From: Pseudomonas sp. DNDY-54
Lineage (GTDB): Bacteria; Pseudomonadota; Gammaproteobacteria; Pseudomonadales; Pseudomonadaceae
Assembly: GCF_019880365.1 (NCBI RefSeq)
Contig: NZ_CP082271.1
Location: 3,446,083 to 3,486,082 of the forward strand
Reading direction: 5' to 3'
Length of the DNA stretch: 40,000 nucleotides
Part shown: in pieces, positions 2,380 through 24,021 of the stretch
Layout: every line of letters begins with the position of its first letter
How positions within the stretch are numbered: the stretch's first letter is position 1
Program-made: the position numbers and the translations under genes
Notes under the pieces: model-generated
Seen by the model: the letters and a program-made list of their open reading frames with translations, nothing else
The model's database searches: none
What the model was told of the DNA's origin: nothing

Positions 2380-5258
2380 CAGCAGTGCTCCCCGACGAAG
2401 GCGCGGACTTCATGGGCGCCGGGCAGCATCAGGGCTTGCTGGGCCAGCCTCTGGCAGGCCGCGAAATCCAGCTCGCGAACGCGCGCCTTCACCAAGGCGA
2501 TGCTGCGCGCCGAAACGCTCAGTTCGTCCACGCCCAGGCCCACCAGCATCGGCACCGCCAATGCATCAGCGGCCAGCTCGCCACAAACGCCGACCCACTT
2601 GCCGTGGGCATGGGCCGCCTCGACCGTCATACCGATCAGCCGCAGCACCGCTGGGTGCAGCCCATCGGCCTGCCCTGAAAGCGTCGGATGCCCGCGGTCG
2701 ATGGCGAGGGTGTACTGGGTGAGGTCATTGGTGCCGATGCTGAAGAAGTCGACTTCCTGCGCCAGCACCGGCGCGATCAGCGCGGCGGACGGGATCTCGA
2801 TCATGATGCCGACCTGCAGATCGGCCACCGGCAGCTCAACGCGCAGGCGGTCGACCATGGCCTTGGCGGTGCGCCATTCATCAATGTTGCCGACCATGGG
2901 GAACATGATCCGCAGCGGGCGGCCATCGGCCGACGAGAGCAAGGCACGCAGCTGGGTTTCGAGGATGTCCGGGCGTTGCAGGCTCAGGCGAATGCCGCGC
3001 ACACCGAGAAAGGGGTTTTCCTCGGCGGGCATCGGCCAGTACGGCAGCGGTTTGTCTCCGCCGACATCCAGCGTACGTACCACCAAAGGGCGCCCCTCAA
3101 GGGCTTCAAGCACGCGGCGGTACTCGGCTTCCTGAGTCGCCTGATCCGGCGCCTGGGAATGGTTCATGAACACCAGTTCGGTACGCAGCAGGCCAATGCC
3201 TTCGGCGCCCATCGCCACCGCTTCCGGGGTTTCGCCGGCAGCGCCGATGTTGGCAGCGATCTCTACCGGATGGCCGTCGCGGGTGATGGCCGGCTCCAGG
3301 CGACGCTCATTTGCCAGGCGCTTGCGATCCTCGCGGGTGGCGCGCTCGTTGCGGGCCTGCTCCAGCTGCGCATCGGTCGGCGAAACCAGCAGTTCACCGC
3401 GCTCGCCGTCGAGCAGTAACAGTGTGTTTGGGGCCAGCCCAAGCACACCCGGCCCAGCACCGACGATGGCCGGAATGCCCAGCGCGCGGGCGATGATGGC
3501 GCTGTGCGAAGTGGCGCCGCCGCCAGCGGTAAGAATCCCCGCGACGCGCTGGGCGTTGAGAGTGGCGACGTCCGAAGGCGCCACTTCGTCCATCACCAGG
3601 ATGTAGGGCTCGTCTGGAGCCTGATCGGCTTCCACACCAGTCAGGCAGGCCAGCACGCGACGCCCAACGTCACGCAAATCGGCTGCACGTTCGGCCAGCA
3701 GCTTGTCGTGCAAGGCCTCCTGCTGCTGCGCCGCAGTTTCGATTTCCTCCATCCAGGCTGCTTCGGCGCTCAGCCCTTTTTGCAGACGCGCCTGGACTTC
3801 CTCTCGCAGCGCCGGGTCGCGCAGCATGGCCTGATGGGTGGTGAAGATGTCGCGGATGCTGGCGACCTGACTCGCTTCGATCAGCGTGCCGATCTCGTCG
3901 TGCACGCCTTTCAGCGCGGCATCCAGGCGTTGCAACTCGATTGTCGGCGATTCGCCATGCTTGGGGTACTCGATCACTTGCGGCTTGCGCACCAGCACCG
4001 GACCGATGGCAATTCCGGGAGACGCCGCAATGCCATTCACCTGATCACCGGCGCACAGGGCGGCCTGCTCGATGGCCGATTCATCAGGTCGCATGGCGAT
4101 GACCGGTTGCTCCATCTCACCTGCGGCCGGCAAGGGCTCGACGTCCTCGCCCAGCCCGTCTTCCACGGCGCGCACCAGCGCCGGCAACGCATCGTCGGCA
4201 ATGGCAGGTTCGGCCATGAATTCAAGCACCTGACCGCGATGCGCACCCATTGCCAACAATTTGCTCAGGCTCTTAGCCGACACGCCAACACCTTCATTGC
4301 CCGCCAGTCGCACGCGAATTTCGCCATCGAACGCCTGTGCGACCTCGGTCAGCGTCTTGGCCGGACGCGCATGCAGACCGTGCGCATTGGCCAGTGAGAC
4401 CCTAGCGCTGGGCCAGTCGGCCGGCACTTCGCCGCCCAGGGCTTCGAGCACCACGCGGCTGGAAGTCGCTTGGCTCAACTCCTGCCCACGTCCTTCGATC
4501 AGCAGGTTGCACAGTCGCTCGAGCATCGCCCGATGCGCTTCGCCCAGGCTGGCCAGCACGAAAAGACCGTTGAGGGGCTGGCCTTGGTGTTCAAGATTCG
4601 ACGCGGGCGTAACGAACGCTAATCCAGGGCGCTGCACCGATTGCTCGCTGCTCAGCCACCAGAGACCATCGCCCAGCGGCAGCGCCTGGCTCAGCGGCAA
4701 GCTGGCGTTGAAGCCCGGTTCTACGCACTGGGCGCGCTTGAGCAACTTCACACCCTGCCAGGCCAATTCGTCGAAATCATCGGCGGCGACACCCAGGCCG
4801 ACCAGTTCGCCGTCCAGCGCCAGGGCCTGCGGCGCGCCCTGCAGCAGGTCGATGATGACCTCAGGGCTTTCGGCCTTCTGCAGCGCCTCGCTGAGGTCGC
4901 CCTCGCCCAGGGCTCGGGTCAGCAGTTGCAACAGGCGCAAATGTTCATCGGAGCGGGCCGCGATACCGATGGCGAGATACACCAACTGGCCGTTGCCCCA
5001 GTCGACCCCGGCCGGAAAGTGCAGTAACCGCACGCCAGTGGTGAACACCTGATCGCGGGTTTCCGGCGTGCCATGAGGGATCGCGATGCCCTGCCCGAGA
5101 AAGGTCGAACCCTGCGCTTCGCGCGCGCGCAGGCCGTCGAGATAACCGGGCGCCACCAGCCCATCGGCGACCAGTACCTCGCCAAGCAGGGCGAGGGCCG
5201 CGGGCTTGTCCGCCGCGTGCTGACGCATGTGGATGTGCTGGGCATTCAACTCAAGCAT
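2379..5258 (-). CDS. fruB: Multiphosphoryl transfer protein of the fructose PTS (EIIA-Fru / HPr-like FPr / Enzyme I fusion)
   Basis: 959-aa ORF with three recognisable modules. EIIA: GQGIAIPHGTPE. HPr-like: ANAHGLHARPAKTL. EI phosphohistidine region: GGGATSHSAIIARALGIPA, followed by the PEP-utilising C-terminal region. Confidence 0.9.
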   Translation of the reverse strand: MLELNAQHIHMRQHAADKPAALALLGEVLVADGLVAPGYLDGLRAREAQGSTFLGQGIAIPHGTPETRDQVFTTGVRLLHFPAGVDWGNGQLVYLAIGIAARSDEHLRLLQLLTRALGEGDLSEALQKAESPEVIIDLLQGAPQALALDGELVGLGVAADDFDELAWQGVKLLKRAQCVEPGFNASLPLSQALPLGDGLWWLSSEQSVQRPGLAFVTPASNLEHQGQPLNGLFVLASLGEAHRAMLERLCNLLIEGRGQELSQATSSRVVLEALGGEVPADWPSARVSLANAHGLHARPAKTLTEVAQAFDGEIRVRLAGNEGVGVSAKSLSKLLAMGAHRGQVLEFMAEPAIADDALPALVRAVEDGLGEDVEPLPAAGEMEQPVIAMRPDESAIEQAALCAGDQVNGIAASPGIAIGPVLVRKPQVIEYPKHGESPTIELQRLDAALKGVHDEIGTLIEASQVASIRDIFTTHQAMLRDPALREEVQARLQKGLSAEAAWMEEIETAAQQQEALHDKLLAERAADLRDVGRRVLACLTGVEADQAPDEPYILVMDEVAPSDVATLNAQRVAGILTAGGGATSHSAIIARALGIPAIVGAGPGVLGLAPNTLLLLDGERGELLVSPTDAQLEQARNERATREDRKRLANERRLEPAITRDGHPVEIAANIGAAGETPEAVAMGAEGIGLLRTELVFMNHSQAPDQATQEAEYRRVLEALEGRPLVVRTLDVGGDKPLPYWPMPAEENPFLGVRGIRLSLQRPDILETQLRALLSSADGRPLRIMFPMVGNIDEWRTAKAMVDRLRVELPVADLQVGIMIEIPSAALIAPVLAQEVDFFSIGTNDLTQYTLAIDRGHPTLSGQADGLHPAVLRLIGMTVEAAHAHGKWVGVCGELAADALAVPMLVGLGVDELSVSARSIALVKARVRELDFAACQRLAQQALMLPGAHEVRAFVGEHC

Positions 5259-17574: not shown

Positions 17575-18540
17575 CTACATCCGATCCAGCGGGCTTAGCA
17601 CCGCAAGACCGCCCCGATTGAGCACATGGGTGTAGATCATCGTTGTCTTCACATCCGCATGCCCAAGCAGTTCCTGGACAGTGCGAATGTCCTGCCCGCT
17701 TTCCAACAAATGAGTGGCGAAACTGTGCCGCAGGGTATGAGGCGTCGCCAACTTTGCGAGCCCTGACGCCTTAACCGCTCGCTTGAACGCGCGTTGCACG
17801 CGTTTCTCGTCCAGATGATGCCGACGCACCGACCCGCTGCGCGGGTCGACTGACAAGCCCGCCGCCGGAAAGACATATTGCCAAGCCCACTCAAACGGTG
17901 CGCCGGGATACTTCCGCGCCAAGGCATCCGGCAGATAGACGTCGCCCCTTCCCTCGGCCAGCTCGAACTGATGAATGGCTCGCACCCGCGCGATATGTTG
18001 CCTGAGCGGTAATGCCAAGCTTGTCGGCATTACCGTGACGCGATCCTTCTGACCCTTGCCGTCGCGGATGATGATTTCCTTTCGCGAGAAATCCACATCC
18101 TTGACCCTAAGCCGTACGCCCTCCATCAAACGAAGACCCCCGCCATACAAAAGTCGCGCGATGAGCCCGACGTCTCCATCAAGCTGTCCGAGGATCTGCT
18201 GTACCTCGCTAATGGAGAGCACAACCGGCAACCGAGCCGGTTTCTTGGCACGGACTACCTCGCCCAACCAGGGTAAATCCTGCTTGAGCACCTGTTTATA
18301 AAGAAACAATAACGCGGCCAGTGCCTGATTCTGCGTGGAGGCCGACACATCACGGCGAACCGCCAGATCAGAAAGAAACGCTTCGACGTCCGGAGCGCCC
18401 ATTTCCATTGGGTGGCGATAATTGTGAAACCGTACGTAGCGCTTGATCCATTCGCAATAGACGCGCTCAGTTCTGATCGAGTAGTGTTTCAGCCTGATCT
18501 GGTCGCGGACTTGATCGAGTAAACGCGGCTTTCCATCCAT
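17575..18540 (-). CDS. intI: Integron integrase (tyrosine recombinase, IntI family), apparently intact
   Basis: ATG at 18540 (cat at 18538-18540) with a GGGAG SD 8 nt upstream. The longer 18630 start in the ORF track would run through attI-side motifs. The catalytic set is visible: GLRLME (Arg), [12 protein letters not shown] (His-x-x-Arg) and TTMIYTHV (Tyr). The IntI-specific insertion [21 protein letters not shown]...RRHHL is present. Confidence 0.9.
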
Positions 18541-18584
18541 GGTGTATAACTCCCTTATACATTCATCCTTCCTCGGAACCGCCC

Positions 18585-18613
18585 AGACTAGACAAGGAGG
18601 TCGAAGATGACAA
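18585..18613 (-). promoter_or_regulatory. Candidate intI promoter (TTGTCA-17 bp-TAGTCT on the minus strand)
   Basis: Read on the reverse strand, the -35 TTGTCA is the complement of 18608-18613 and the -10 TAGTCT is the complement of 18585-18590. The -10 is weak. This is sequence inspection only. Confidence 0.2.
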
Positions 18614-18616
18614 GGA

Positions 18617-18678
18617 ATGTTATACACCACGCCCGTTCGGCGTCTTATACACCACTTGGTGTCTAATTATAGTTAGGC
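18617..18678 (+). other. attI recombination site with its crossover core
   Basis: Direct repeats TTATACACCAC occur at 18620-18630 and 18645-18655. An inverted copy, GGTGTCTAA, lies at 18658-18666, followed by the core GTTAGGC at 18672-18678. The first cassette's attC inverse core GCCTAAC (18912-18918) is complementary to this core. Confidence 0.8.
18646..18673 (+). promoter_or_regulatory. Candidate cassette promoter (TATACA-16 bp-TATAGT) overlapping attI
   Basis: -35-like TATACA at 18646-18651 and -10-like TATAGT at 18668-18673, oriented into the array. By-eye match only. Confidence 0.2.
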
Positions 18679-18911
18679 GTCATTTTCGTTTAAGGCTCGT
18701 GCATACATGGAAGTTTGTTTCGCCGCCGCCCGTTACTCTTTCAATACGCATCCGTCGCATTGCCCGCTAGCGCGTCGTTTGCGCGCTTTGGCTCCGAGTC
18801 CGGCAACAAGGAGCATGCAGCGGTGTGAATCAGTCAGCACGTATTGGTTTGAACGTTCGAATCCACTCAGCCATTCGCGGTATCAGCCAGCGAGGCCCGC
18901 TATGCTCCGCT

Positions 18912-18987
18912 GCCTAACAAGCGGTTCAAGCCGCTCACTTCGTTCGCTGGGACTGGCTAAAGCCAGCCCCTTAACCAAACGTTAGGT
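18912..18987 (+). repeat. attC 1 (76 bp, diverged member of the array's main attC family)
   Basis: GCCTAAC ... GTTAGGT. The central stem gactggctaaagccagcc differs from the family's gacgggctaaagcccgcc by a compensatory pair (G>T with C>A). Confidence 0.85.
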
Positions 18988-18992
18988 ATCAA

Positions 18993-19226
18993 ATGCTAAA
19001 CCGCTACCCTGACCAAGCCCGCACCCGTAGAGGTTACGCATTAACGGGAGCGTTGTTTTTGATATTTGGCCTATTTATGCTTTTTATCGGTTCAGCAGCA
19101 GGAACTCTTGTCGGTGTGGTCATGGCCTGTACATTACTTATTCCAGCATGCCTATTTAGCCACTCTCGCTTCAAAAAATATAATAGTGCCATTTCATGGG
19201 TAGCCAACTTTGGTAACCTGTCGTGA
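18993..19226 (+). CDS. Cassette 2 (18982-19297): hypothetical small membrane protein, 2 TM
   Basis: 77 aa. The ATG is 11 nt after the crossover. Hydrophobic segments are ALTGALFLIFGLFMLFIGSAAG and LVGVVMACTLLIPACLF. The stop lies just before attC 2. Confidence 0.6.
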   Translation: MLNRYPDQARTRRGYALTGALFLIFGLFMLFIGSAAGTLVGVVMACTLLIPACLFSHSRFKKYNSAISWVANFGNLS

Positions 19227-19227
19227 A

Positions 19228-19303
19228 ACCTAACTAGTGGTTCAAGTCGTTCGCTTCGCTCACTGGGACGGGCTAAAGCCCGCCCCTTAACCAAACGTTA
19301 GGC
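19228..19303 (+). repeat. attC 2 (76 bp, main family)
   Basis: ACCTAAC...ggttcaagtcgttcgcttcgctcactgggacgggctaaagcccgccccttaaccaaacGTTAGGC. The inverse core complements the cassette start TTAGGT. Confidence 0.9.
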
Positions 19304-19305
19304 GA

Positions 19306-19725
19306 GTGAGTCTTTTTATCGGAGTATGGAGTAGTACCGATATGGCGTATTTTTTTGACATGCTTTTCGGATTAATTTTTGTCTTCGTCGCTTCTCTAGG
19401 CTTGATTATCACACCACTGAAGAAATATGTTTCGTTAAAAATTGTCGTAGTAGCAATATTCATGTCACCACTCGTTTTGCTAGTTACGTCTTTATGCGTC
19501 TCTCAGGTTGACGCGGTGGGCGTTGAGGGATTCTTGGCAGGTGACTTTCTTTGCTCTAGTCTGCATGGCGCCAGTTCACACGGATGCGGTATAGGCGGTG
19601 CTCTTTTTGATGCGTTTCTAGTAGCAGGCCTGTTCAGCCTAGTTAGCTTCGGGTTGTTTCCTATTGCTGCCTTTGTGGTATCCCTTTTACTTCTTTCAAT
19701 ATTGAAGAAACTACTTTGTCACTAG
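19306..19725 (+). CDS. Cassette 3 (19298-19888): hypothetical polytopic membrane protein
   Basis: 139 aa from the GTG at 19306; the ATG at 19342 is an alternative start. About 4 hydrophobic segments with a Cys/Gly/His-containing loop (CSSLHGASSHGCGIGG). Confidence 0.6.
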   Translation: MSLFIGVWSSTDMAYFFDMLFGLIFVFVASLGLIITPLKKYVSLKIVVVAIFMSPLVLLVTSLCVSQVDAVGVEGFLAGDFLCSSLHGASSHGCGIGGALFDAFLVAGLFSLVSFGLFPIAAFVVSLLLLSILKKLLCH

Positions 19726-19782
19726 GTACGGTCGCCCGCTCGCTGTTTCCGGCCGCCGCTAGCGCGCCATGAAGTCCGCATG

Positions 19783-19894
19783 GCCTAACCGTTCGTTCAA
19801 GCCGAACCTGCTTCGTTGCAGCACCATCGTGGCAGAAAAAACTTGCCACGCCGTTGCTTCCACTACGCAGTTCGGCTTAACTCAGGCGTTAGGG
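19783..19894 (+). repeat. attC 3 (112 bp, heterologous type)
   Basis: GCCTAAC cgttcgttcaagccgaac ... gttcggcttaactcaggc GTTAGGG, with a long imperfect central palindrome. Its sequence is unrelated to the main family. Confidence 0.85.
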
Positions 19895-19901
19895 TAAGAA
19901 C

Positions 19902-20363
19902 ATGCTCCTTCAGCTAAACGCTAATAAAGACAACCACAGGAAGGTTTTAGCTGAGTTGATAAAACGCTCTGAAATATCAGTACTGTGCTCTGGATGGCTG
20001 AAACAGGCGGGGCTTAAACACTTACTCCCCGCCATTGATCTCGCCTTAAAAAATAAAAGCCAAATCACTATTTACTCAAATAAAAAACATACTGATAGCG
20101 AAGCAATAGAATCTCTAAAATCAAGAGAGTCAATTCTCCACATAGTAGTAGACGACAGCGCTAAATATCTTCATTCAAAAATATACTACTTCGAGAACGC
20201 TGGTGAATATAAAGCAATCATAGGTTCTGCGAACATCACGAACGGCGGATTAACCTCTAACGAAGAGCTTTCAGTAAGCCTGGCAGGAACTATTGGTGAC
20301 AGTCAGAACAATCAAATAAAAAAATATCTAGCTCGGCTTAAAACCGTGGGCCACCCAAACTAG
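19902..20363 (+). CDS. Cassette 4 (19889-20423): PLD-superfamily (single HKD motif) nuclease-like protein
   Basis: 153 aa. The relaxed HKD motif is LHSKIYYFENAGEYKAIIGSANITNGG...NEE (H91, K93, E98, G108-S109-x-N111; nt about 20172-20234). The TAG stop lies inside attC 4. Confidence 0.65.
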   Translation: MLLQLNANKDNHRKVLAELIKRSEISVLCSGWLKQAGLKHLLPAIDLALKNKSQITIYSNKKHTDSEAIESLKSRESILHIVVDDSAKYLHSKIYYFENAGEYKAIIGSANITNGGLTSNEELSVSLAGTIGDSQNNQIKKYLARLKTVGHPN

Positions 20364-20429
20364 TGGTTCAAACCGTTCGCTGCGCTCACTGGGACGGGCT
20401 AAAGCCCGCCCCTTAACCAAACGTTATGT
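20354..20429 (+). repeat. attC 4 (76 bp, main family)
   Basis: CCCAAAC...ggttcaaaccgttcgctgcgctcactgggacgggctaaagcccgccccttaaccaaacGTTATGT. There is one mismatch to the complement of the cassette start TTAGGG. Confidence 0.9.
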
Positions 20430-20451
20430 GGCAGCTCATCTGAGAATGTGA

Positions 20452-20787
20452 ATGACTGATAAATTCGATGAAACTAGAGCAAAGTTTCTGAGCACAGATT
20501 ATCTGCTATGGCGTAATGTGCTTTCTTGCGTTGTTCTGGTTGTGCTATCTACAGGCGCTGTATCGTCTTGGTGGTACGCCTATTACACGACTCCTGGGGC
20601 CGAGTGCCACAGAGGTTTCTTTTACTTTTCGGTTCTGTGGCTTGTTGTTCAATGGGTAGTCATTGGTTATCTATATCGGTATCGGAATGTCCCTGCATTT
20701 GCTCGGGGTGCGATAGAAATGCTAATTCTGGTCGCTAATATTTGGTTTGTGCTTTTCATTTTTTCGCTTGAGCCGTGTGTCTCGTGA
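20452..20787 (+). CDS. Cassette 5 (20424-20872): hypothetical membrane protein, about 3 TM, Trp/Tyr-rich
   Basis: 111 aa. Hydrophobic segments are VLSCVVLVVLSTGAV, FFYFSVLWLVVQWVVIGYLY and IEMLILVANIWFVLFIF. Confidence 0.6.
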   Translation: MTDKFDETRAKFLSTDYLLWRNVLSCVVLVVLSTGAVSSWWYAYYTTPGAECHRGFFYFSVLWLVVQWVVIGYLYRYRNVPAFARGAIEMLILVANIWFVLFIFSLEPCVS

Positions 20788-20794
20788 CGCAAGC

Positions 20795-20878
20795 ACATAA
20801 CCAGTGCAGGCACGGCGACGCCCTTTTCATTGCGCCTTCGGCTCCATTCCAAGGGCGCGCATGCTGCAAGCGTTATGT
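20795..20878 (+). repeat. attC 5 (84 bp, heterologous type)
   Basis: ACATAAC cagtgcagg ... gctgcaagc GTTATGT. The inverse core exactly complements the cassette start TTATGT. Its sequence is unrelated to the main family. Confidence 0.8.
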
Positions 20879-20887
20879 ACCAAAGCC

Positions 20888-21325
20888 ATGAATATCATTG
20901 AAGCAATAAAAATGTCTTGGGGCTGGGTCGGTATTGAGCCAGAGGAAATCATTGGTGAAAACGATTTCGGAAATCTGATCATCAAGGACAATCGCGGCAG
21001 GTATTGGCGCCTATGCCCTGAAGATGTTTATTGTCAAGTAATCGCCGAAAATAGAAACGAGCTTGATGCGCTCTCGACAAACCAAGATTTCTTAGCTGAT
21101 TGGTACATGGCTGCGTTGACTGAACAAGCTAAAGAGAGACTTGGCTCATTGCTGCCCGGTCACAAATATCACTTGGTCATACCGAGCGGGCTTGGTGGCG
21201 AGTATACATTATCAAATATTCGTACAGTTCCACAGATCGAGCAAATACACTTCTCTGGAGACATCGGAAAGCAAATATCCGATCTCCCTGATGGCGCTAA
21301 AGTAAAACTCAAGGTTATCGAGTAA
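20888..21325 (+). CDS. Cassette 6 (20873-21399): DUF1851 / T6SS-immunity Tdi1 C-terminal-like protein (tentative)
   Basis: The ATG at 20888 is the first start inside the cassette; the ORF-track start at 20804 lies in the previous cassette/attC. 145 aa. The blocks FGNLIIKDNRGRYWRLCPEDV and LPGHKYHLVIPSGLGGEYTLSNIRTV...IHF resemble my recollection of the DUF1851 signature (..cy.f.P.l.LGG....n...v). This has not been checked against a profile. Confidence 0.45.
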   Translation: MNIIEAIKMSWGWVGIEPEEIIGENDFGNLIIKDNRGRYWRLCPEDVYCQVIAENRNELDALSTNQDFLADWYMAALTEQAKERLGSLLPGHKYHLVIPSGLGGEYTLSNIRTVPQIEQIHFSGDIGKQISDLPDGAKVKLKVIE

Positions 21326-21329
21326 AGGC

Positions 21330-21405
21330 ACATAACAAGTGGTTCAAATCGTTCGCTTCGCTCACTGGGACGGGCTAAAGCCCGCCCCTTAACCATACGT
21401 TAGAA
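21330..21405 (+). repeat. attC 6 (76 bp, main family)
   Basis: ACATAAC aagtggttcaaatcgttcgcttcgctcactgggacgggctaaagcccgccccttaaccatacGTTAGAA. Confidence 0.9.
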
Positions 21406-21410
21406 GTCAC

Positions 21411-21869
21411 ATGGATATCGTAGCCCCAATCATCGCAATTCTTTTTACATGGCGCTTTTTACTCAGCCTAGCCATCTCAGTAGTGCTTGCATTTTTGTTA
21501 GCTCAACACTTTGGGCTAGTAGCTAGTTTTTTTACAATCTGTATTGGCGTGGGTTTTGGCGCTATTTGGCAGGGTCGTTGGTTATCTGGCCTAGCTTTGT
21601 TCGAGCCTGCCCAAGCTCAGTTAGTATCTAAGCCCATTGCATTTATTGGTTTCGCTTTTATTGGGGCCATATGGGGTGGTCTTGTAGGCCAGCTATTCGG
21701 CTCTACGCTAATTGGGGCATTAGTTTTGCTGGCTGGCGTTACACTAACAGGCGCTTGGTTTACCCTAGTTCTTAAACTACACGCACAGCTTTTTAAACTC
21801 ATATTAGTCGCTATATCTTTGCTCATCGGATTTTTTAGCATTTACGTATACGGCTTACGTCAGGTATAA
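21411..21869 (+). CDS. Cassette 7 (21400-21945): hypothetical polytopic membrane protein, Gly-rich helices
   Basis: 152 aa. The ATG is 11 nt after the crossover. About 4-5 TM segments with GxxxG-like runs (IGVGFGAIWQG, FIGFAFIGAIWGGLVGQLFG). Confidence 0.6.
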   Translation: MDIVAPIIAILFTWRFLLSLAISVVLAFLLAQHFGLVASFFTICIGVGFGAIWQGRWLSGLALFEPAQAQLVSKPIAFIGFAFIGAIWGGLVGQLFGSTLIGALVLLAGVTLTGAWFTLVLKLHAQLFKLILVAISLLIGFFSIYVYGLRQV

Positions 21870-21875
21870 GGCGCC

Positions 21876-21951
21876 TTCTAACAAGTCGCTCAAATCGTTC
21901 GCTTCGCTCACTGGGACGGGCTAAAGCCCGCCCCTTAACCAAACGTTATGC
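21876..21951 (+). repeat. attC 7 (76 bp, main family)
   Basis: TTCTAAC aagtcgctcaaatcgttcgcttcgctcactgggacgggctaaagcccgccccttaaccaaacGTTATGC. The inverse core complements the cassette start TTAGAA. Confidence 0.9.
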
Positions 21952-21972
21952 GTAAACAAGGAAGGAGTCAGC

Positions 21973-22287
21973 ATGGCAAATAGTTGGAACATTCCAAGCT
22001 GGCTCGAAAAAGAAGTCCGCGCGAGGGACAAAAAAAGCGTTTATTGCGGCATAGCATTCACAACAGCCAAGATCTCAAAGAAAACTTGCGCGATCTGGGA
22101 GCACATTTTAAATGACGCGAAAATCATTACTCTCGAAAACATTACTCTATGCTGCTGCTCATGCAACGCTAGTAAAGGACAAAAACAGCTTTCTGCATGG
22201 CTTCTTTCAAAATACTGTGTTGACCGCCAAATCACGCGAGAGTCAGTGGCCCCAATAATCAAGCAGGCATTAGCCAACGGGCTTTAG
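21973..22287 (+). CDS. Cassette 8 (21946-22362): small HNH-motif endonuclease-like protein
   Basis: 104 aa with a GGAAGGAG SD upstream. HNH-like layout: VYCG (C25) ... WEHILND (H44) ... ENITLCCCSCNASKG (N56, C61-x-x-C64, N65). The first zinc-knuckle CxxC appears incomplete (SVYC). Confidence 0.6.
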   Translation: MANSWNIPSWLEKEVRARDKKSVYCGIAFTTAKISKKTCAIWEHILNDAKIITLENITLCCCSCNASKGQKQLSAWLLSKYCVDRQITRESVAPIIKQALANGL

Positions 22288-22292
22288 CAACC

Positions 22293-22368
22293 GCATAACA
22301 ATTGGTTCAAACCGTTCGCTTCGCTCACTGGGACGGGCTAAAGCCCGCCCCTTAACCAACCGTTAGAT
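22293..22368 (+). repeat. attC 8 (76 bp, main family)
   Basis: GCATAAC aattggttcaaaccgttcgcttcgctcactgggacgggctaaagcccgccccttaaccaaccGTTAGAT. The inverse core complements the cassette start TTATGC. Confidence 0.9.
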
Positions 22369-22771
22369 GCTTATACCTATGAATACTTACTCTGCCCATT
22401 GGCTAGCTCGAATGATTGAACGCCTGCCTTCCGACGAGCCGGTTTCACTCGGCACTCAAGGCTATGCCCATTACACCACGCAGCGTGATCATTGGTTGGG
22501 CTGGCTAGATCCAAACAGAAAAGCAGTGAAGTATGCGAGGAGCAGCGGCCCTGGACGGGATGCGAGATATGCTTACAACCACATAATGGAGCCCAAAATG
22601 CTGCTGTGGCTAATCTCTGCTGCTGGTTTCCCTAATAGCGAACTTGAAAGGGCTAGAGAAGAAGCACAAGGAAAGAAAGCGTTCGCGAGCAAGTGTGCTG
22701 CTATTAGGCGGGTTGTATCGTGGGAAAAAATGGCAGCTGCGCTAACTGCAGGCCCAAACCACGATAGCTAA
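22367..22771 (+). CDS. Cassette 9 (22363-22837): hypothetical soluble protein, no recognised domain
   Basis: 134 aa. The ATG at 22367 overlaps the attC 8 core (GTTAGATG); the ATG at 22379 is an alternative. The composition is non-membrane and Trp/Arg-containing (HWLARMIERL, HWLGWLDPN). Confidence 0.55.
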   Translation: MLIPMNTYSAHWLARMIERLPSDEPVSLGTQGYAHYTTQRDHWLGWLDPNRKAVKYARSSGPGRDARYAYNHIMEPKMLLWLISAAGFPNSELERAREEAQGKKAFASKCAAIRRVVSWEKMAAALTAGPNHDS

Positions 22772-22843
22772 CAAATGGTTCTTAAATCGTTCGCCTAGCT
22801 CACTGGGACGGGCTAACCCCCGCCCCCAAACCAAACGTTAGGC
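22766..22843 (+). repeat. attC 9 (78 bp, main family, slightly diverged)
   Basis: AGCTAAC aaatggttcttaaatcgttcgcctagctcactgggacgggctaacccccgcccccaaaccaaacGTTAGGC. Confidence 0.85.
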
Positions 22844-22886
22844 AAAAATCAAATCCAACGCGTAGCTGCTCACCTGTGGTTTAGGA

Positions 22887-23138
22887 GTGCCGTTTTCTAT
22901 CTTCTTTGGCGCGCAAGTAGGTGCTTATGTCGTGGGCTTTATCTGGTCAGCAAAAGGCGTTTCTTTATTAGCTTTTCATATCGTTCCCTGCAGTGGTTTT
23001 TTCCCAACAAATGGTTCAAAGCGTTCGCTCCGCTTAATCGATACCGGTTCATGCCCGCCCACTAACCAAACGTTTAGACGGTTCTGCAGCTCGCTCCGCC
23101 GGGTGTCGATATGGATCGTGTTCGTTCGACTAACTTGA
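22887..23138 (+). pseudogene. Cassette 10 (22838-23072): short decayed cassette; the ORF runs through the attC and past the array end
   Basis: The GTG-started 83-aa frame has no spacing to its putative SD. It crosses attC 10 and the last crossover, so it is most likely a remnant or not a gene. Confidence 0.25.
23002..23078 (+). repeat. attC 10 (77 bp, degenerate terminal copy of the main family)
   Basis: TCCCAAC aaatggttcaaagcgttcgctccgcttaatcgataccggttcatgcccgcccactaaccaaacGTTTAGA. The flanks are conserved, but the central stem is disrupted and the core is GTTTAGA instead of GTTAGR. Confidence 0.65.
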
Positions 23139-23185
23139 TCAAGCGGCAGACAGCCCCTCGCTGAGTCAGCAAGAAGGAGAACACG

Positions 23186-23623
23186 ATGCCAGCGTTAATC
23201 GTCCGTAAATCTATCTGTATAAGCGCGCCACCGTCGAAGGTCTGGAACACCCTTACGTCGCCGAGCGCGATAAGGCGCTGGATGCTGGTGACGCCGGTCT
23301 TAGAGAGTGATGGCCCGCTACAGTTGGGAAATAGGGTCCGATGGAATGACGAACATGGCCGAACCTATCTCACCGGTACGGTCGTCACGCTTGATCCACT
23401 GCAGAAACTCGTGCTCGCGCTGGAAGATATCAGTTGGCCACGAAAGGCAAGGCCGGGCGAGGTGACATACGGGCTGACGCTTTCGGAATCGGACGGCGGG
23501 TCTCGTCTGGAGTTTGTGCTCGGTGACCTGGCGATCGATCCGGATGGCCAGCAGTGGTTCGAGGCGTATAGCGCCAGCGAAGAGTTGGCAATCATCAAAG
23601 CCATGGCGGAGGACCGACCGTGA
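23186..23623 (+). CDS. SRPBCC-superfamily (AHSA1/START-like) protein
   Basis: 145 aa with an AAGGAG SD. The N-terminal I.A....VW..LT.P..I..W pattern is typical of the Aha1/SRPBCC family. Confidence 0.6.
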   Translation: MPALIVRKSICISAPPSKVWNTLTSPSAIRRWMLVTPVLESDGPLQLGNRVRWNDEHGRTYLTGTVVTLDPLQKLVLALEDISWPRKARPGEVTYGLTLSESDGGSRLEFVLGDLAIDPDGQQWFEAYSASEELAIIKAMAEDRP

Positions 23624-24021
23624 GTCGTATCGACACTCGCTGTTTATGCGGAGCCGTTCACCTACGGATCCATCATCAGCCGGTGGCTCAGTTTTACTGC
23701 CACTGTGACGATTGCCAGGCCGTGCATGGTGCGTCGTATGTGGGCGTGGCTGTCTTTCCCTCGGACGCCGTCGAGGTCATTCGAGGCGCGCCGATCTCGT
23801 GGACGTACAAGACACTGCCCCGACAACGCTGCCGGACATGTGGGACGCTTCTGATCGCGCGCGTGCCAGATTCAGCGCTAACAGGCATCAAGGCAAACCT
23901 GTTGCCGCCAGGCACGTTCACGCCGGCGTTTCACATCCATTGTCAGTTCGCGGTGCTTCCGGTTGTGGATGATCTACCGCACTACGCGTCCCTGCCGGGC
24001 GTCTTCGGGGGTACTTTATGA
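23620..24021 (+). CDS. GFA/CENP-V family (glutathione-dependent formaldehyde-activating-like) zinc protein
   Basis: 133 aa. The GTG start overlaps the upstream stop (GTGA). Cys pattern: CLCG...CHCDDC...C..CG. Confidence 0.65.
   Translation: MSRIDTRCLCGAVHLRIHHQPVAQFYCHCDDCQAVHGASYVGVAVFPSDAVEVIRGAPISWTYKTLPRQRCRTCGTLLIARVPDSALTGIKANLLPPGTFTPAFHIHCQFAVLPVVDDLPHYASLPGVFGGTL

Follow-up and report, generated by a model that had tools for sequence, protein, structure and literature searches.

A gene cassette in a chromosomal integron array of Pseudomonas sp. DNDY-54 was analysed within a 40,000-nucleotide (nt) window, that is, the whole stretch of DNA under study (NCBI RefSeq assembly GCF_019880365.1, contig NZ_CP082271.1, positions 3,446,083 to 3,486,082 of the forward strand). 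The cassette occupies positions 21946-22362 of the window (+ strand, 417 bp), is the eighth counted from attI, and carries a single open reading frame (ORF), an ATG-initiated coding sequence at 21973-22287 (+) for a 104-residue stand-alone HNH endonuclease (His-Me finger) of the H-N-N type. The product is most likely a solitary nicking or cleaving nuclease, probably related to defence, and the allele found here a hypomorphic or inactive one.

This is a canonical integron cassette, promoterless and with complementary borders: GTTATGC, the R' core of the upstream attC (21945-21951, +), lies 28 nt 5' of the ATG, and its inverse complement GCATAAC lies 5 nt 3' of the stop codon. Crossover at the left border falls between G21945 and T21946, and the cassette span delimited in the sequence-only reading, made from the letters before this analysis, proved to be the exact interval from one G|TT crossover point to the next. 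The upstream attC (21876-21951, +) belongs to cassette 7 and is a member of a 74-nt direct repeat family. The attC of the HNH cassette itself (22293-22368, +) has its R'' core, GCATAAC, at 22293-22299 and its R' core, GTTAGAT, at 22362-22368, and shares 91% identity with that family's reference copy. Seven copies of this repeat, each with an RYYYAAC core at its start and a complementary GTTRRRY at its end, run from 18912 to 22841. Altogether nine attC sites, all on the + strand, were located between 18912 and 22843; most are near-identical and 74-76 nt long, and the two of other sequence types (19783-19894, 112 nt; 20795-20878, 84 nt) suggest that some cassettes were taken up from other integrons. 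The integron integrase gene intI lies upstream of the array on the opposite strand (17575-18630, -) and encodes a tyrosine recombinase with an integron-type N-terminal SAM-like domain (Pfam Phage_integrase, 3e-35; Phage_int_SAM_4, 6e-31). Beside it an attI-like GTTAGGC was read in the sequence at 18673-18679, about 3.3 kb from the HNH cassette. A sigma-70-like promoter was sought 5' of the HNH cassette and none was found, and the allele would sit at a poorly expressed position of the array. Its translation signal is as strong as had been claimed: the Shine-Dalgarno box GGAAGGAG (21960-21967, +), in which AAGGAG ends 5 nt before the ATG, is the only clear one in the array, the other eight cassette ORFs having no comparable purine-rich box.

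The HNH motif layout noticed earlier was borne out in the translation, which reads S22-V-Y-C25, W42-E43-H44, N56 and C60-C61-C62-S-C64-N65-A-S-K68-G. Codons E43-H44 (22099-22104, +) align with the D-H pair of the Cas9 HNH domain and would provide the catalytic histidine, acting as general base, together with an acidic metal ligand. Codons C60-C61-C62-S63-C64-N65 (22150-22167, +) comprise the second CxxC knuckle (C61, C64) followed by a putative metal-binding asparagine, and align with the CxxCN of the HNH domain of AceCas9. In a wide alignment of 43 sequences only E43, H44 and N65 were invariant, so that the histidine singled out in the sequence-only reading is indeed the invariant catalytic one. 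E43, H44, N56 and N65 are all intact in the window protein.

Membership of the HNH nuclease family is almost certain. A profile search against the Pfam families HNH (PF01844) and HNH_5 (PF14279) gave a divided answer, the window protein itself staying below threshold while its relatives matched HNH in 17 and HNH_5 in 18 of 43 cases at E <=0.1 (best 3.9e-6 and 5.4e-5). The PHROG HNH families were matched by the window protein at 3e-5 and by 42 of the 43 relatives, and the PADLOC PtuB models by 33 of the 43 (best 2.6e-7) and by the window protein at 0.0034. Against the PDB, a profile of 31 homologues found the HNH domain of a Cas9-like protein (E 4.6e-4), and one built from the 43 more diverse relatives found the AceCas9 HNH domain (E 1.5e-5); in the latter alignment the CxxC, acidic-His and CxxC-N-x-x-K-G motifs line up residue by residue. 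The beta-beta-alpha-metal reading is likewise supported by the predicted fold. AlphaFold2, run on the deeper alignment (pLDDT 91.4), placed the beta-beta-alpha core in strands 40-44 and 57-61 and helix 62-68; an earlier run on the shallow 31-homologue alignment (pLDDT 65) was set aside. The top 20 Foldseek matches to the model were all HNH domains, and the top 15 from VIA-align, spanning residues 1-104, were all HNH nucleases, the best being the AnaCas9 HNH domain (Z 7.9, root-mean-square deviation 2.8, 92 aligned residues). A homodimer prediction scored 0.02, a value that counts neither for nor against dimerisation.

The HNH domains of type II-C/II-D Cas9 and of IscB (AceCas9, 8D2K; AnaCas9, 4OGE; NbaCas9, 9K32) are thus the best matches among solved structures by profile and, with Z of 7-8 across all 104 residues, by fold, and they share with the 104-residue family the same order of elements (CxxC, acidic residue and His, Asn, CxxC-N-x-x-K-G). 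They are inserts in large RNA-guided enzymes, whereas the 104-residue protein is free-standing, with no RuvC domain, guide RNA or CRISPR context. A special kinship to the Cas9/IscB insert was considered and set aside: Cas9 is over-represented in the PDB, so that the ranking says nothing about kinship, and the NCBIfam IscB model was matched at E 0.065 only. The Pfam matches among relatives were to HNH_5 and HNH. Cas9 D839, H840 and N863, which we take to be the counterparts of E43, H44 and N65, are the basis on which these residues are read as metal ligands and general base. By alignment to the Cas9 HNH domain and from general knowledge of HNH enzymes, H44 would act as the general base, E43 and N65 would hold the catalytic Mg2+ or Mn2+, N56 would brace the beta-hairpin, and C22, C25, C61 and C64 of the family would coordinate a structural zinc. 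A Cas9-HNH-like domain would be completed by one flanking helix on the N-terminal side and three on the C-terminal side. The enzyme, which has neither a recognition domain of its own nor a conserved partner, may be pictured as a catalytic domain alone, most likely nicking or cutting DNA in a metal-dependent manner and with low sequence specificity.

The first zinc knuckle is indeed reduced to a single cysteine in the window protein, as had been noticed, and this is not a feature of the family. Position 22 is Ser in this copy and Cys in all 161 other distinct 104-residue homologues, and Cys22 is nearly always present in relatives at 35-55% identity. Codon 22 (22036-22038, +), which in the family specifies the CxxC knuckle's first zinc ligand, is AGC here and TGC or TGT in every other homologue; a codon comparison with seven loci (L007, L008, L009, L010, L011, L013 and L014) shows that the change is derived on the window branch. 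The family site consists of C22, C25, C61 and C64, and only three of these ligands are kept. The "missing" cysteine is therefore a private missense mutation (TGC to AGC) and most likely no new type of zinc knuckle. Three further substitutions, likewise polarised as derived in the window copy, accompany it: S41I (Ser in 160 of 161 others), I46L (Ile in 154 of 161, Leu in none of the others) and R54L (Arg in 142 of 161, Leu in one other). The window protein is among the seven of 162 sequences with three or more deviations at columns conserved in at least 95%. C22 can be argued to be needed, because it is invariant in the 161 other sequences and nearly so at 35-55% identity, and we consider it rather likely that the C22S change has left the window allele hypomorphic or inactive.

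Taken together, a cassette-borne solitary HNH nuclease, probably related to defence and represented here by a hypomorphic or inactive copy, is the reading that we judge probable. Several points weigh against it. The window protein itself reaches only E 0.48 against Pfam HNH (11 bits, with a cut-off of 21.4). Compared with its nearest relative, L007, it has an omega of 0.055 at a synonymous divergence (dS) of 0.84 (pairwise NG86), and the branch leading to it has median length; most of the history of the window gene has therefore passed under purifying selection. Nothing shows long-term decay, so that the damaging changes would be either recent or tolerated. Some HNH nucleases, such as the HNH domain of SpCas9 and the colicin DNases, are active with no zinc site, so that replacing a Cys by Ser would not necessarily leave the enzyme inactive. 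Codon 22 also lies at the edge of a run of seven A, where a base-calling error is conceivable. The defence part is built on genomic context, and in Campylobacterota the gene is stable between housekeeping genes (mutS2/ligA; guaA/selO). Long-term relaxed selection had also been considered from parsimony on the window branch (8 nonsynonymous to 14 synonymous changes) and was dropped, given the NG86 omega against L007.

A fully functional window allele, in which Ser22 is tolerated or replaced in its role by a nearby Cys such as C39, C60 or C62 and in which S41I, I46L and R54L are compensatory, appears doubtful on this evidence, though not negligible. The intact E43, H44, N56 and N65, the unbroken ORF with the best Shine-Dalgarno box of the array, the low omega against L007 and the spare conserved cysteines near the site (C60, C62 and C82) would all fit such an allele, but not the invariance of C22 or the presence of three further substitutions at positions conserved in 88-99% of sequences.

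It was also observed that the loss of cysteines is not confined to the window copy. Nine sequences reach 80% identity or more to the window protein, and three of them have each lost a different one of six near-invariant cysteines: the window protein itself (C22S), L007 of Pseudomonas sp. MAC6 (L007:4001-4315; C61F) and the NCBI/Logan protein P0005 (C60Y). A fourth substitution in the cysteine cluster, C62Y, occurs in Ectopseudomonas guguanensis (L010:4001-4315); L007, P0005 and L010 are all among the nearest relatives of the window copy. A loss of this sort is seen in only 2 of the 153 other sequences (Fisher p ~0.001), a contrast that is a lead and no more, because the groups were chosen after seeing the data. 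Between L007 and L010 omega is 0.40. These comparisons suggest that the zinc cluster in the Pseudomonas-type cassette lineage may be under relaxed selection or selected against. A bolder view would have the 104-residue family act as an autonomous one-protein anti-phage or anti-plasmid nuclease, a bare HNH domain lacking sensor and partner, spread by integrons over more than ten phyla and kept under strong purifying selection. The alleles that independently lost C22, C60 or C61 would then be naturally attenuated forms, selected because the intact enzyme is costly to its host; this is regarded as unlikely.

The ORF at 21973-22287 is a real gene, since 164 homologous clusters were found and omega in the family is close to 0.1. 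These clusters, defined at 90% identity, are nearly all exactly 104 residues long and 65-91% identical to the window protein; at 50% identity, 571 clusters were obtained, mostly of 100-160 residues. A search among longer proteins yielded only 16 singletons, each with a different fusion partner and typical of read-through gene calls, so that the family is free-standing by rule and not a fragment. The earlier description of a free-standing protein in a mobile cassette holding no partner gene therefore stands, with one ORF in 417 bp and a length typical of the family, whereas the suggestion of an orphan fragment of a larger system is rejected, as it fits neither the almost uniform length nor the few, heterogeneous longer proteins. 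The median omega in the family is 0.096 (pairwise NG86), synonymous sites being saturated in 93% of pairs (2518 of 2701). By this measure the family is under strong purifying selection, and given the saturation its high cross-phylum identity reflects constraint and not only recent transfer. Pseudogenes do exist among the homologues, as truncated copies of 75 codons (L061:4001-4228) and 13 codons (L065:4001-4042).

The family, which already bears the name "HNH endonuclease" in NCBI and represents a known kind of enzyme though itself uncharacterised, is widespread but sparse. It is present in more than 10 phyla, and a pattern scan of one genome per species gave at least 192 loci among 185,579 species; in the genus of the window strain the gene was found in 2 of 67 genomes. 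The gene tree is poorly resolved (5 of 76 branches supported) and too weak for counting transfers. A tblastn search of 50,697 phage records gave no match, and one of 72,556 plasmids gave a single match at 47% identity. The "homing-type nuclease" entertained in the sequence-only reading thus finds no support, and attC and IntI account for the mobility of the gene. The broader idea of a phage-type HNH protein, either a terminase-associated packaging nickase or a free-standing homing endonuclease, captured by an integron, is very improbable on the same grounds. The PHROG HNH families do match, and the size is close to that of phage packaging HNH proteins, but the matched PHROG proteins have 196-435 residues and are hit in their HNH core, and no terminase, intron or intein context was seen at any of 80 loci.

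The same cassette geometry as in the window was recognised at 26 of 77 testable homologous loci, compared with 1 of 649 control positions. These loci have a GTTRRRY placed 22-29 nt ahead of the start codon, with its exact complement following the stop codon at a distance of 5-8 nt, or of 16 nt in one locus. The upstream border alone is kept at 11 further loci. This complementary-border test replaced two attC detectors, one scoring inverted-repeat arms, which recovered none of the known sites, and one based on folding energy, which recovered two of the seven repeat-family sites together with many false positives in GC-rich DNA. Cassette-borne copies occur in Pseudomonadaceae, Methylophilaceae, Marinobacter, Methylococcaceae, Thiodiazotropha, Desulfosudaceae, Lentisphaerota and Candidatus Kuenenia (Planctomycetota), and intI lies within about 2 kb of the HNH gene at seven loci. 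The survey of neighbours in other integron arrays that had been proposed earlier thus shows about a third of the loci to be cassettes with the same borders. It was also noted that in a Methylobacillus metagenome-assembled genome (betaproteobacterial; L014:4001-4400) the attC after the HNH gene is of the Pseudomonas type seen in the window, the result of either a recent cassette transfer or a binning error. A Thiodiazotropha contig (L025:1597-2196) shows the start of a second, tandem HNH cassette, with masked sequence beyond.

Neighbour clustering over the 77 loci gave no partner common beyond single genera and no recurrent small partner. The loci outside cassettes are variable or defence-island-like spots or, in Campylobacterota, positions between housekeeping genes, and the neighbours include Mrr, AAA_15/DUF4435, DUF2806, Abi_alpha and toxin-antitoxin genes. 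An Mrr-type gene lies downstream of the HNH gene in Geobacteraceae and Nitrospina, and one distant relative also adjoins Mrr; another is found among ResIII helicase, DUF3800, Cas4-like and RHH-PIN genes. An AAA_15/DUF4435 ATPase gene stands upstream at locus L082. The picture that emerges is of an accessory gene found in variable regions and tied to no obligate partner.

In Sulfuricurvum and its kin (L012, L022, L033, L043, L050 and L086; ~4001-4315) the HNH gene begins 0-28 nt after mutS2 and, at four of the Sulfuricurvum-group loci, ends 4 nt before ligA. In Aliarcobacter it lies between guaA and selO, and in Arcobacter nitrofigilis beside radA. The mutS2-ligA gap, which holds Sel1-repeat and Phd-antitoxin genes in sister genomes, may be a hotspot for insertions between two repair genes, or else the arrangement is a repair operon. 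A family function as an accessory nickase of DNA repair or recombination, and not as an immunity gene, would have its model in Gme HNHE (Gmet_0936, PDB 4H9D), a small dimeric stand-alone zinc HNH protein of the H-N-N type with four Cys ligands, which shows weak, non-specific, Mn-dependent nicking with a preference for damaged DNA (PMC3765158). Gme HNHE is the closest characterised stand-alone analogue in form and likewise has no recognition domain, with a fold likeness of Z 5.2. It belongs to a different sequence family, however, the 104-residue family profile having no match to it at E <=1, and is not known as cassette-borne. Such a repair function, which the placement beside mutS2, ligA and radA and the low toxicity implied by the absence of an immunity partner would favour, is rather unlikely, since the mutS2-ligA gap looks like an insertion hotspot, 26 of the 77 loci are integron cassettes, and the sparse distribution (2 of 67 genomes of the own genus) fits an accessory gene better than one for repair.

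In Marinomonas the HNH gene follows a ParD-type antitoxin gene by 22-24 nt with no ParE present (L001:4704-5315, also L002, L019 and L028). This arrangement could represent a toxin-antitoxin pair of ParD and the HNH protein; alternatively, the HNH gene may have displaced parE. Were the family a toxin held in check by a ParD-like antitoxin, the window copy would be an orphan toxin detoxified by C22S, and the loss of a different conserved cysteine in each of three among the nine closest sequences would agree with this, as would the Marinomonas pairing (three loci, at least two species). This explanation is improbable, however, as the pairing is limited to one genus and the window cassette has a single ORF; at least 26 cassettes and dozens of other loci carry the intact gene with no antitoxin-like neighbour, and no small partner recurs over the 77 loci.

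Among known defence genes, PtuB, the HNH nuclease of Septu PtuAB and of type I-A retrons, was the commonest match in the defence library (33 of 43 relatives). PtuB is about twice as long as the 104-residue protein and works with the ATPase PtuA. No PtuA-type ATPase was found among the cassettes at 18707-24021, and elsewhere an AAA_15 gene lies upstream only at L082, one of 80 loci. The HNH restriction enzymes of Type IV, EcoKMcrA and ScoMcrA, share the HNH core and the CxxC...CxxC zinc site (fold Z 5.3); they have a separate N-terminal domain that reads modified DNA, for which the 104-residue protein is too small. As regards function, the nearest precedent in a genetic element of this type is offered by Sirona and Nemetona of the V. 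cholerae chromosomal integron, which are described as single-gene HNH-like cassettes with a His-Me finger nuclease, experimentally protective against phages and related to a type II restriction domain and to lambda NinG, Sirona being present in 34 genera of Pseudomonadota (bioRxiv 10.1101/2024.07.02.601686). The likeness is one of published description. In Pfam, NinG was touched by only 1 of 43 relatives of the 104-residue family.

Of the roles put forward in the sequence-only reading, that of a defence effector appears the most plausible on this analysis, although it falls somewhat short of an even chance. The same holds for the slightly wider proposal of a single-gene accessory or defence function, which may be put forward tentatively; processing of DNA damage or of recombination intermediates seems a good deal less likely. 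Some integron cassettes of unknown function have by now turned out to contain very small genes for phage defence, and the present family is an attractive test case, being among the more cosmopolitan cassettes, consisting of a catalytic domain alone and highly conserved yet partnerless. If a lone role in defence or DNA processing proved true, the family would show how a nuclease with no recognition domain spares its host. In this genome the eye-catching feature is most likely a damaging point mutation, and it is the family rather than this copy that merits experiment.

Other cassettes of the array may be mentioned briefly. The ORF of the next cassette (22367-22771, +; 134 residues) has no Pfam match, and its product aligns at 48% identity (E 6e-39) with residues 99-226 of P0190, a 355-residue metagenome protein from a 1.9-kb contig whose C-terminus belongs to the same HNH family. 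A Rosetta-stone link between the HNH cassette and its neighbour through P0190 was considered and rejected, the fusion being a single occurrence with no repeat in 80 loci or among the 16 longer proteins. A further cassette ORF (19902-20363, +) encodes a 153-residue protein with a PLD/NgoFVII-like nuclease domain, and another (20804-21325, +) encodes a protein with the C-terminal domain of Tdi1, a DNase-immunity protein of the type VI secretion system, and looks like an orphan immunity gene.

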